Below, piece after piece: positions 8,577 through 11,402 of a DNA stretch of 64,000 bases. The notes beneath the pieces were generated by a model. That model had not been told where the DNA came from. It searched no databases and was given only the letters and a program-made list of their open reading frames with translations. Each line of letters starts with the position of its first letter. Position 1 is the stretch's first letter. The position numbers and the translations under genes are program-made. This DNA comes from an uncultured archaeon (GTDB taxonomy: Archaea; Thermoproteota; Nitrososphaeria_A; Caldarchaeales; Wolframiiraptoraceae), in the NCBI GenBank assembly GCA_938083505.1, contig CALKCF010000002.1, positions 64,001 to 128,000 of the forward strand, in the 5' to 3' direction.

Positions 8577-8657
8577 ATTATGCTGGAGACCTGAGAATTT
8601 TTGCCTAATAAAAGGCGTGTTTAGTCGTCTGGACCTGTGTTTGTAGGTGGACTGAGG

Positions 8658-11402
8658 TTGCATAGGGTCGCGGTCATAGATTACGATTTCTGTCAGCCAA
8701 CCAAGTGCGGCCAGCCCTGCATATCATTCTGCCCGCCCGTGAGGAATAAGATAGAGGCCATCAAGCTCGGTGAGAAGGGATTTCCAGTAATTAACGAAGT
8801 GCTGTGTATTGGGTGCGGTATATGCCTCGACCCGAACACACCAGTGGTAACAGAGGCTGGTTTGAAGCCCATTAGAGAGGTTAAGGTAGGCGACAAAGTA
8901 CTCACACATAAAGGAAGGTTTAGGACTGTTCTCTCAAAAAGCGTCAGGCTGTATACCGGCCCCCTCTACAGAATAGAGGTACATGGTATACCGGACCCGA
9001 TACTGCTAACCGAGGATCATCCTTTACTCGTCGCTTCAAAGAACCAAGAAGCGGATGATTTTACGTTTGCCTGGAAAACCCCGCCCGAACTGAAAGAAGG
9101 CGATTACCTTTGTGCTCCAATAGTTACAAACGAAGGTTGTTTAGGGCAGCAAGAACAGCTCACTATCACTACCTCAGGAGTGCTAGCCCAATCGTTATCC
9201 TTTGAATTGACGTTCAAGCTCGGTATAATATTCGGTTATTACCTTGCCAGGGGGTCTGTAGAGCGTGAAAAAGTCGTATTTAGATTCGAAAGGGAGGGTA
9301 TGGTTAAAAAGGCAGAGGAGCTTCTAGAGAAATGCTTCGGTGTGAAAGTCATCCAGAAAGGCCCCAGATCGTTCTTTGTAAACTCGGAGCCTTTAGCCAA
9401 TCTGTTCCGCAACATTCTCGGAGGCTCGGAAGATTCTAAGAGGATACCAATGAGCTTCCTATCCGCATCCTTAGACTTCTTAAAAGGTTTCATCTTAGGA
9501 TTCATAGAGGCTGGGGATAATCGTACGAGTCCTTACATTTCCATGAATAATGCATACATCTTAAAGTTGATGGGAGCAAGGCTTAGCTTACCGTTATCAA
9601 TAAAAAAGGTCGCAAATGCTTATGCAATCTCACTCAGCGATAGGGGGAATGTATCATCAGGAGGTTACCAACTAAACATAATAAACTCAGTGAAGGTTGA
9701 GTTTGTGAAAGATTACCTAGTAATAAACTTAGAAGTCGAAGATGACGAGACATACAACGCCGTAGGGCTTATAGTTCATAACTGTGTTAAGAAGTGCCCG
9801 TTTGAAGCGATCACGATAGTTAACCTGAGCGAAGAGCTTGGTAGGGACATGGTGCACCAATACGGTGTGAATTCGTTCAGGCTTTACAGGCTTCCATACT
9901 TGGAGAAGGAAAAAGTCATCGGTATAATCGGAAAGAACGGCATAGGTAAGACCACAGCGTTGCAGATACTTGCGGGCCGTATTGTCCCGAACTTAGGCAA
10001 GTTATGCGAGGAGAAATCCCTACATGATGTTGCCAGAATGTTCAGGGGCTCACTTATACAAGATTATTTGACGAAGCTCGCCAGCGGTGATGTAAAAATT
10101 TCATACAAGCCGCAATACATCGACACGATACCAAAAGTCGTTAAAGGTAAAGTTGGCGCAATTTTGTTAAAGATTGGTCCCGAAGAGCGTGTTAACAAGC
10201 TAATAGACATGCTGGAGCTCCGCAACCTATTGGATAGGGATGTTTCTGTACTTAGCGGCGGTGAGCTCCAACGCCTTGCGATAGCGGCTTGCCTTGCAAG
10301 GGATGCTAATGCGTTCATACTAGACGAGCCGACCAGCTTCCTTGATATAAAGCAAAGGTTTAGGATAGCTTCAGTAATCAGGGAGCGCGCGCGGGAGGGC
10401 ATGGCCCTCGTATCTGACCATGACCTCGCGGTTCTTGACTATATATCGGATAAGGTTTTCGTGTTTTACGGCGAGCCAGGGGTATACGGCATCGTCGCAG
10501 GCCCTTATGGTGTTAGGGAGGGCATAAATATATTCATAGAAGGATACATACCTGACGAGAATGTAAGGTTTAGGAGTGAAAGGATATTGTTCCAGCTGAG
10601 GCCTCCAACGGAGGCTTATGAAGAGGGTTACTTAAGGCTCTACTGGCCGAGCATGACAAAAACCTATGATGTCTTTAGGCTGGAGGTCGAAGAGGGCTAT
10701 GCATATCCTGGCGAGGTGATCGGTATAGTGGGTCCAAACGGTATAGGTAAAACAACCTTCATAAAAATATTGGCGGGCATCGAGAAGGCTGATGCGGAGT
10801 TTCAGTTACCTTATAGGACGATAAGTTACAAGCCACAGTATCCAGAGATAAAGGACGAGAAAGTTGAAGTCGTTCTTAAAGAAGCTGCTGGAAGCAAGTT
10901 CAATACCGACCTTTACCAATCAGAGCTGATTAGAGCATTGGGTCTACATAAGATACTTGAAAGGAATGTTAGAGAGCTGAGTGGTGGCGAGCTCCAGAAG
11001 GTTGCAATAGCTGAGGCCCTTTCAAAGGATGCTGAAATTTACCTGATAGACGAACCGAGCGCGTACCTGGACGTCGAAGAAAGGTATACAGTCGCAAAGT
11101 TGCTGAAGAGGATAACACGCGAAAGGCAGGCCCATACATTCCTCGTTGAGCATGACCTTATGGTATTAGACTTTGCATCAAGCAGATTGATGGTTTTCTC
11201 GGGCGAGCCGGGTATCAGCGGACATGCCAGCAAACCCATGGACCTTAGGTCAGGGTTCAACGCTTTTCTAAAAGATATGGGTGTCACATTCAGGAGGGAC
11301 CAACAGACGTTCAGGCCGAGAGCGAACAAGCCCGATTCTAGATTGGACAAACAACAAAAAGCGATCGGTGAGTATTACTATCCAGTACCGACCTCGGAGT
11401 AA
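8658..11402 (+). CDS. Ribosome recycling ATPase ABCE1/RLI, intein-containing
   Basis: N-terminal CX4CX3CX3CP and CIGCGI|CVKKCPF Fe-S motifs; two ABC domains (GKNGIGKT, GPNGIGKT, LSGGELQ twice); TFRRD/RPRANK tail; likely TTG start at 8658. Confidence 0.95.
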   Translation: MHRVAVIDYDFCQPTKCGQPCISFCPPVRNKIEAIKLGEKGFPVINEVLCIGCGICLDPNTPVVTEAGLKPIREVKVGDKVLTHKGRFRTVLSKSVRLYTGPLYRIEVHGIPDPILLTEDHPLLVASKNQEADDFTFAWKTPPELKEGDYLCAPIVTNEGCLGQQEQLTITTSGVLAQSLSFELTFKLGIIFGYYLARGSVEREKVVFRFEREGMVKKAEELLEKCFGVKVIQKGPRSFFVNSEPLANLFRNILGGSEDSKRIPMSFLSASLDFLKGFILGFIEAGDNRTSPYISMNNAYILKLMGARLSLPLSIKKVANAYAISLSDRGNVSSGGYQLNIINSVKVEFVKDYLVINLEVEDDETYNAVGLIVHNCVKKCPFEAITIVNLSEELGRDMVHQYGVNSFRLYRLPYLEKEKVIGIIGKNGIGKTTALQILAGRIVPNLGKLCEEKSLHDVARMFRGSLIQDYLTKLASGDVKISYKPQYIDTIPKVVKGKVGAILLKIGPEERVNKLIDMLELRNLLDRDVSVLSGGELQRLAIAACLARDANAFILDEPTSFLDIKQRFRIASVIRERAREGMALVSDHDLAVLDYISDKVFVFYGEPGVYGIVAGPYGVREGINIFIEGYIPDENVRFRSERILFQLRPPTEAYEEGYLRLYWPSMTKTYDVFRLEVEEGYAYPGEVIGIVGPNGIGKTTFIKILAGIEKADAEFQLPYRTISYKPQYPEIKDEKVEVVLKEAAGSKFNTDLYQSELIRALGLHKILERNVRELSGGELQKVAIAEALSKDAEIYLIDEPSAYLDVEERYTVAKLLKRITRERQAHTFLVEHDLMVLDFASSRLMVFSGEPGISGHASKPMDLRSGFNAFLKDMGVTFRRDQQTFRPRANKPDSRLDKQQKAIGEYYYPVPTSE
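8823..9782 (+). mobile_element. Class-1 intein (320 aa) with degenerate LAGLIDADG endonuclease region
   Basis: Block A CLDPNTPV, block B LTEDHP, blocks F/G VINLEVEDDETYNAVGLIVHN followed by Cys+1; removal restores CIGCGICVKKCPF. Confidence 0.95.

Follow-up and report, generated by a model that had tools for sequence, protein, structure and literature searches.

The gene for the ribosome recycling factor ABCE1 (RLI) of an uncultured archaeon of the Wolframiiraptoraceae is interrupted by an intein at one of its iron–sulphur (Fe-S) cluster ligands. The gene lies in a stretch of 64,000 nucleotides (contig CALKCF010000002.1 of assembly GCA_938083505.1, positions 64,001 to 128,000), which we call the window and whose own numbering is used throughout. 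The insertion, at 8823..9782 on the forward strand, is very probably a genuine self-splicing class-1 intein that carries a nested, dead LAGLIDADG homing-endonuclease domain, splits the only ABCE1 gene of its host and is now trapped in place and vertically inherited.

The identity of the host gene is clear from its profile matches. The precursor scores 793.7 bits against the NCBIfam model NF009945 (ribosome biogenesis/translation initiation ATPase RLI), for which the cut-off is 469, and contains the Pfam domain Fer4_RLI followed by two copies of ABC_tran. The longest open reading frame, 8637..11402 on the forward strand, comprises 921 codons and opens with GTG at 8637; the true start is probably the TTG at 8658, seven codons further on, because close relatives begin MHRVAV or MPRVAV. 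On the evidence of these starts and of the NF009945 match we place the precursor gene at 8658..11402 (forward strand, stop codon included). The match to the RLI profile falls into two pieces, hidden Markov model (HMM) positions 2-58 in the N-extein and 56-589 in the C-extein, with 960 nt between them. The N-extein (8658..8822, forward strand) bears the first Fe-S motif, CQPTKCGQPCISFCP, and aligns to chain residues 17-74 of Pyrococcus abyssi ABCE1 (3bk7), while the C-extein (9783..11402, forward strand) holds the hinge and the two ABC ATPase domains and aligns to residues 75-606. Since residues 74 and 75 of 3bk7 flank the insertion, it is exact, with host residues neither gained nor lost. Conceptual splicing restores the eight cysteines of the N-terminal 2x[4Fe-4S] domain that the ABCE1 family requires, and a profile search finds ABCE1 as a single-copy gene in the source genome, which is 98.5% complete.

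In the DNA sequence itself, the junction reads C(-6)IGC(-3)GI/C1LDPNT...LIVHN/C(+1)VKKC(+5)PF, where slashes mark the extein boundaries. The intein thus sits between the second and third cysteines of CxxCxxCxxxCP, the second ferredoxin-type motif. On the N-extein side, and all on the forward strand, lie Cys(-6) (TGT, 8805-8807), Cys(-3) (TGC, 8814-8816) and the last N-extein residue, Ile(-1), whose ATA codon starts at 8820; on the C-extein side, the third cysteine of the motif is Cys+1 (TGT, 9783-9785) and the motif ends with Cys+5-Pro (TGC-CCG, 9795-9800). A first-pass annotation of the window had given the boundaries, the length of 320 amino acids and the CIGCGI/C...HN/CVKKCPF junction exactly, and its class-1 assignment is likewise borne out by Cys1, TEDH, HN, Cys+1, the HINT fold and the exact continuity of the exteins.

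The intein (960 nt, Cys1 to His319-Asn320) is assigned to class 1 because its nucleophile is Cys1 (block A; TGC, 8823-8825, forward strand). Within the HINT domain, residues 1-103 of the intein (8823..9131, forward strand) make up the N-terminal half and include block B, T63-E-D-H66, at 9009-9020; the C-terminal part, residues 281-320 (9663..9782, forward strand), includes block F (VINLEVEDDETYNA) and block G (GLIVHN), and the block F/G stretch ...NLEVEDDETYNAVGLIVHN directly precedes Cys+1. The terminal His319-Asn320 pair is encoded at 9777-9782, with Asn320 as AAC at 9780-9782. The genus alignment shows no variation at C1, T63, H66, H319 and N320, and four of these (C1, T63, H66 and N320) are likewise invariant across 29 related inteins. 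An AlphaFold2 model built from the genus alignment combines a HINT with a LAGLIDADG fold (mean pLDDT 89.8, pTM 0.88). Its top Foldseek matches in the Protein Data Bank are the TliVMA and PhoVMA inteins (7qss, 7qst, 7qsu; E about 1e-17, TMq 0.73), followed by PI-PkoII, PI-SceI and PI-PfuI and then by free LAGLIDADG enzymes; the gp41-1 mini-intein is also matched.

Three other origins for the interruption were considered and rejected. An assembly artefact is made unlikely by the occurrence of the interruption in seven separate species genomes and in five publicly named loci from separately named metagenome-assembled genomes (MAGs); a pseudogene is ruled out by the intact frame and the low ratios of nonsynonymous to synonymous change (dN/dS); and autoprocessing of the bacterial intein-like (BIL) or Hedgehog type is ruled out by the HN pair with Cys+1 and the exact extein continuity.

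ABCE1 is essential, as are its Fe-S clusters, which in the human protein are held by C16-C21-C25-C65 and by C29-C55-C58-C61 (PMC13255074). In the alignment, human C55, C58 and C61, three ligands of one cluster that is completed by the last cysteine of motif 1, are matched by C(-6), C(-3) and C+1, and C65, a ligand of the other cluster, is matched by C+5. The earlier proposal that Cys+1 is itself a [4Fe-4S] ligand is therefore upheld by its alignment to C61. After translation of the precursor, the HINT domain would perform the standard four steps of splicing: an N-S acyl shift at Ile(-1)-Cys1, trans-thioesterification to Cys+1, cyclisation of Asn320 and a final S-N shift, which would yield the product motif CIGCGICVKKCP. 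Because the intein separates ligands of both clusters, neither native [4Fe-4S] cluster should form before splicing, and with the native ligand sets incomplete until then, cluster insertion must follow it. The splice nucleophile being also an Fe-S ligand, the order of maturation would be fixed: splice first, clusters after. As there is one copy of the gene, efficient splicing in vivo would also be required.

In LAGLIDADG endonucleases the acidic residue that ends each LAGLIDADG motif is catalytic. The endonuclease domain of the ABCE1 intein (residues about 127-258; 9201..9596, forward strand) is degenerate at both of these positions. Motif 1 survives as YYLARG (9237..9254, forward strand), with Arg143 at the position of the catalytic glutamate, and motif 2 as GFIEAGDN (9498..9521, forward strand), in which the catalytic aspartate is missing and G231 is found; intact relatives read YYLAEG and GDG. 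In all six full-length members of the genus the catalytic positions are R, K or N in motif 1 and G or K in motif 2, and one congener lacks the endonuclease domain altogether, leaving a mini-intein of 180 aa. PF14528 finds no match in this intein, which measures 320 aa as against about 372 aa in intact relatives, its endonuclease domain being about 50 aa shorter. Since the catalytic positions are non-acidic, the domain is shortened and unmatched by PF14528, and a congener has deleted it, the element can presumably no longer home. The architecture nevertheless persists in the model, where the LAGLIDADG helices span residues 131-143 and 217-230 and the two-lobed alpha-beta-beta-alpha-beta-beta-alpha fold is kept, with Foldseek likenesses to I-DmoI, I-Tsp061I and the non-nuclease LAGLIDADG protein WhiA.

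This retained fold, together with the same-site relatives in other archaea that keep YYLAEG and GDG and look mobile, is what could be said for an endonuclease that is still active, in which case the presence of the intein in every species of the genus would reflect ongoing homing. Such activity is hard to credit with no acidic residue at either catalytic position in any of the six full-length members, no PF14528 match and an intein 50 aa shorter than its intact relatives, all the more so as the intein co-diverges with its exteins and no near-identical copies are shared between species; we regard it as highly improbable.

The distribution of the intein argues instead for a single old event. The source genome (1.15 Mb in 10 contigs) belongs to a Candidatus Terraquivivens-like archaeon of the Ca. 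Wolframiiraptor lineage within the Caldarchaeales, the nearest named loci in a scan with the genus alignment being MAGs of Candidatus Terraquivivens yellowstonensis, tengchongensis, tikiterensis and ruidianensis. Members of this Caldarchaeales lineage, the family Wolframiiraptoraceae, are described as anaerobic thermophiles in a paper that also names the genus Terraquivivens (PMC9246946). We surveyed 76 species genomes of the class by the positions of their RLI profile matches. ABCE1 is interrupted in 7/7 species genomes of the source genus, with an HMM match starting at 56-57, and uninterrupted (HMM 2/3-590) in 59/59 full-length matches from the remaining 14 genera of the class; the intein is thus absent from ABCE1 in sister genera of the same family. 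Within the genus the exteins are 86-96% identical and the inteins 56-85%; two well-supported tree splits are common to intein and exteins, pairwise identities correlate at r=0.78, and the genus comparison reveals no near-identical intein copies across species.

Substitution rates rise from the exteins to the linkers, as far as the approximate NG86 method allows with synonymous sites near saturation in the genus (pS 0.54-0.73). The dN/dS ratio is 0.025 in the N-extein and 0.056 in the C-extein, 0.08 in the C-terminal and 0.115 in the N-terminal part of the HINT domain, 0.17 in the endonuclease domain and 0.27-0.37 in the linkers. At 44.3%, the intein is no different in GC content from the window as a whole. 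Recent acquisition, a further possibility, was discarded on the genome-like GC content and the co-divergence with the exteins. No second copy of the ABCE1 intein was found elsewhere in the source genome, nor any other intein with PF14890 and PF14528, a weak negative given that PF14890 missed the ABCE1 intein too; a scan of the genome collection with the single intein protein matched only an unrelated bacterial intein.

We propose the following history for the element. A homing element would have entered a highly conserved coding site of ABCE1 and become fixed by the time of the genus ancestor at the latest; endonuclease activity would then have been lost, with vertical inheritance since under selection to keep splicing. 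Genus-wide presence, co-divergence, the order of the dN/dS values and the GC content together point to this sequence of one old acquisition, fixation, endonuclease loss and vertical descent. The element would be trapped because its removal, if imprecise, would destroy an essential gene, and there remains no allele free of the intein with which to recombine. Beside the genus stand two further ABCE1 sequences from Logan assemblies, P0027 and P0028, absent from the 76 species genomes searched, whose N-terminal exteins are nearly identical to those of Terraquivivens in the region shown. Their inteins, of about 280 aa, are only 34-39% identical to ours and lack a large segment over LAGLIDADG motif 1; the intein tree places them as sister to the genus clade. 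These features suggest a related lineage that has yet to be sampled and an acquisition that predates the genus.

Several observations weigh against this account of a trapped but splicing element. Curated intein profiles all fall below their cut-offs (PF14890, 25.8 vs 35.8; PF13403 (Hint_2), 22.5 vs 28.4; TIGR01445, 19.1 vs 24.5 bits); Pfam and TIGRFAM intein profiles are weak for such a divergent clade, and the intein assignment is carried by motifs and structure. Splicing itself is deduced from conserved residues and from the single-copy, essential nature of the host gene. Purifying selection still acts on the endonuclease domain, and a dN/dS of about 0.17 is not obviously expected of a purely decaying domain; this residual selection is the one observation that a simple trapped-element model does not fully explain. 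Lastly, long retention after the death of the endonuclease is also what an adaptive role would predict.

The likeliest cause of the residual selection is a folding constraint on splicing, although the domain may retain some function. One such function would be co-option of the excised intein through its LAGLIDADG-derived domain, either for nucleic-acid binding as in WhiA or in a maturase-like or chaperone-like role. A dN/dS of about 0.17 despite the loss of both catalytic acids, the confidently predicted fold and the Foldseek match to WhiA are all compatible with this. However, one species has deleted the whole domain with its ABCE1 still intact, P0027 and P0028 carry large deletions in it, and the linkers and the segments on the DNA-binding side are the least conserved parts of the intein. 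The need for correct folding during splicing accounts for the constraint more simply, and we consider co-option very unlikely.

The insertion site is by no means confined to this genus. A database search with the intein plus its flanks returned 255 proteins, of which 120 were listed; the counts below are of clusters at 90% identity and, like the groupings, refer to the matches listed. At least 33 further ABCE1 clusters have an intein at exactly this site. They comprise the Terraquivivens clade, P0027/P0028, a clade of 23 clusters, Bathyarchaeota BA1 and one singleton. The 23-cluster clade has inteins of about 372 aa with intact endonuclease motifs, and one of its members is labelled Thermoplasmata; two genome loci about 32% identical are labelled Thermoplasmata and Methanobacteriota EA_24. 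The first-pass annotation had suspected that ABCE1 was an uncatalogued intein host. This stands in so far as our literature search turned up intein purification tags and no description of an intein in ABCE1 or NuoI, and no source name shown for the ABCE1 matches mentions an intein, but the site is not rare in sequence data. The kind of element and its mechanism are standard, and many unlabelled copies already reside in public data. Where annotations do exist they are misleading in two cases: the intein-bearing ABCE1 of Bathyarchaeota archaeon BA1 (P0035) is entered as 'Trehalose/maltose import ATP-binding protein MalK', and one from Thermoplasmata (P0039) as 'LAGLIDADG family homing endonuclease, partial'.

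A parallel in another host is found in NuoI-like proteins, where inteins that databases leave unlabelled occupy two sites. Site b (CVFCGL/C...N/CVDACPF, 27 clusters) is the homologous position in the second ferredoxin motif, CxxCxx/CxxxCP; site a (DYGR/C...HN/CVFCGL, 37 clusters) lies six residues upstream of it and has no Cys at -3. These inteins belong to the same family as the ABCE1 intein, at 29-32% identity and 83-138 bits over the intein only. The host protein differs. Most of the aligned NuoI representatives keep their endonuclease motifs, an exception being the YYMAGG in motif 1 of one of them, and the NuoI inteins include short mini-inteins. In intein-only BLASTP comparisons with the ABCE1 intein the best scores are 161 bits for the 23-cluster ABCE1 clade, 149 for P0027/P0028, 138 for Bathyarchaeota ABCE1, 138 for NuoI site b, 131 for NuoI site a, 100 for SufB and 90 for Terminase. 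The similarity to NuoI inteins is thus comparable to that to other ABCE1 intein clades and higher than that to SufB or terminase inteins. Trees recover every intein group with strong support and leave the order among the ABCE1 clades, NuoI-a and NuoI-b unresolved, and we claim no direction or number of host switches. It is plausible that the Fe-S-motif inteins share an origin. A bolder reading would be that one intein family specialises on coding sequence for the ferredoxin-type CxxCxxCxxxCP motif and has moved between the unrelated hosts ABCE1 and NuoI.

The setting of the intein at a cluster ligand raises the question of whether splicing is regulated. C(-3)-G-I-C1 forms a CxxC pair that spans the junction of N-extein and intein, a geometry that the first-pass annotation had recognised correctly and had read, by analogy with the MoaA intein of P. 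abyssi, as a redox switch. The precedent exists in the literature, which describes a native Cys(-3)-Cys1 redox trap in P. abyssi MoaA (PMC10663303 citing Callahan 2011). Such an adaptive, conditional splicing switch would work through oxidative or metal stress that blocks the first step, either by a Cys(-3)-Cys1 disulfide or by a metal or cluster bound to Cys1 with C(-6) and C(-3) (pseudo-motif CIGCGIC), and would keep ABCE1 as an inactive precursor until reducing conditions return. Ribosome recycling would in this way respond to redox or iron status, and the oxygen-labile Fe-S domain would be protected. The CxxC arrangement, which matches that described for the MoaA trap (PMC10663303), fits the proposal, as does the fact that no sampled species of the genus has lost the intein, although the endonuclease died long ago and one species keeps only a precisely trimmed mini-intein. 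The host clusters are essential (PMC13255074), and Rli1 is reported as a key target of reactive oxygen species (PMC3442406).

The pattern itself, however, is no evidence for an evolved switch, because any Cys1 intein placed before the third cysteine of CxxCxxC gains it. Dictated by the host motif, it is common to 61/61 site-b inteins (34 in ABCE1 and 27 in NuoI), whether mobile or dead, and this part of the original proposal does not hold. Related inteins also work at NuoI site a, with no Cys at -3, and the sister genera of the same family manage without any intein. A trapped selfish element would equally be expected to persist, to give rise to a natural mini-intein and to show selection on its HINT domain, and in a family described as anaerobic (PMC9246946) oxidative gating would be relevant only on occasional exposure to oxygen. 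We therefore think an adaptive switch unlikely. In vitro, splicing may well prove sensitive to oxidation through the Cys(-3)-x-x-Cys1 pair, a sensitivity that we regard as a by-product of the insertion site.

Comparison with the MoaA intein brings out what is particular to ABCE1. In both, Cys1 can pair with an N-extein cysteine in a disulfide, and both reside in an Fe-S enzyme that is sensitive to oxygen and comes from an anaerobic thermophile. For MoaA the disulfide and redox-dependent splicing were demonstrated experimentally, as described in PMC10663303, whereas for ABCE1 both are putative. In ABCE1, moreover, the -3 cysteine is itself a cluster ligand and is made obligatory by the host motif.

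The VMA inteins, which provide the best structural matches (TliVMA and PhoVMA, 7qss, 7qsu, 7qst; PI-SceI, PI-PfuI and PI-PkoII), share Cys1, TxxH, HN and Cys+1 and a HINT fold with an inserted two-lobed LAGLIDADG domain, and they too interrupt an essential ATPase at its most conserved cofactor-binding motif. They differ in host and site, ABCE1 and an Fe-S ligand in our case, with an identity of only 13-19%, and in that both catalytic acids of the endonuclease are lost here.

The mycobacterial SufB intein, another intein in an Fe-S-related essential protein, has been reported as stress-sensitive. Archaeal SufB/SufD inteins are detectable relatives here. The host and site differ, no cluster ligand serves as nucleophile, and the similarity is more distant, at about 100 bits.

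What makes the ABCE1 case informative is the nature of its host. Core translation components hold few inteins, according to a published survey (PMC4760082). ABCE1 is essential in archaea and eukaryotes, and here would be made only through protein splicing. The arrangement offers a natural test of whether a cysteine-rich cofactor motif makes splicing redox- or metal-dependent, and the genus and its relatives supply a series of full-length inteins with dead endonucleases, a natural mini-intein and intein-free sister genera. The apparently mobile relatives in ABCE1 and NuoI allow a test of homing between unrelated genes that share a short cofactor motif. Should splicing prove simply constitutive, the ABCE1 intein would be one more trapped selfish element; should the switch be real, it would be an immobilised intein kept as a post-translational switch on ribosome recycling. 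The system is thus a well-defined experimental one for cofactor-motif inteins and conditional splicing, with a regulatory mechanism that is only putative.

Some further members of the wider intein family deserve mention. P0010-P0026 are NuoI-like 2x[4Fe-4S] subunits of about 900 aa that contain two full-length LAGLIDADG inteins. In P0011 these span residues 108-475 and 482-853 and leave between them an extein of six residues, CVFCGL, so that one Fe-S motif takes in the +1 Cys of the first intein as well as the -6 and -3 Cys of the second. Other NuoI variants carry either intein alone, or a mini-intein of 166-182 aa at site a. A protein of 1138 aa with a precomputed match to PF17289 (Terminase_6C), P0064, contains two inteins that are distant relatives (87-90 bits), which hints that viruses could carry this intein family. 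In P0074, P0108 and P0113, SufB/SufD-like proteins labelled SufD from DPANN-type archaea, one or two related inteins follow ...YIEG/C, and SufB/SufD is a third Fe-S-related host of the wider family.

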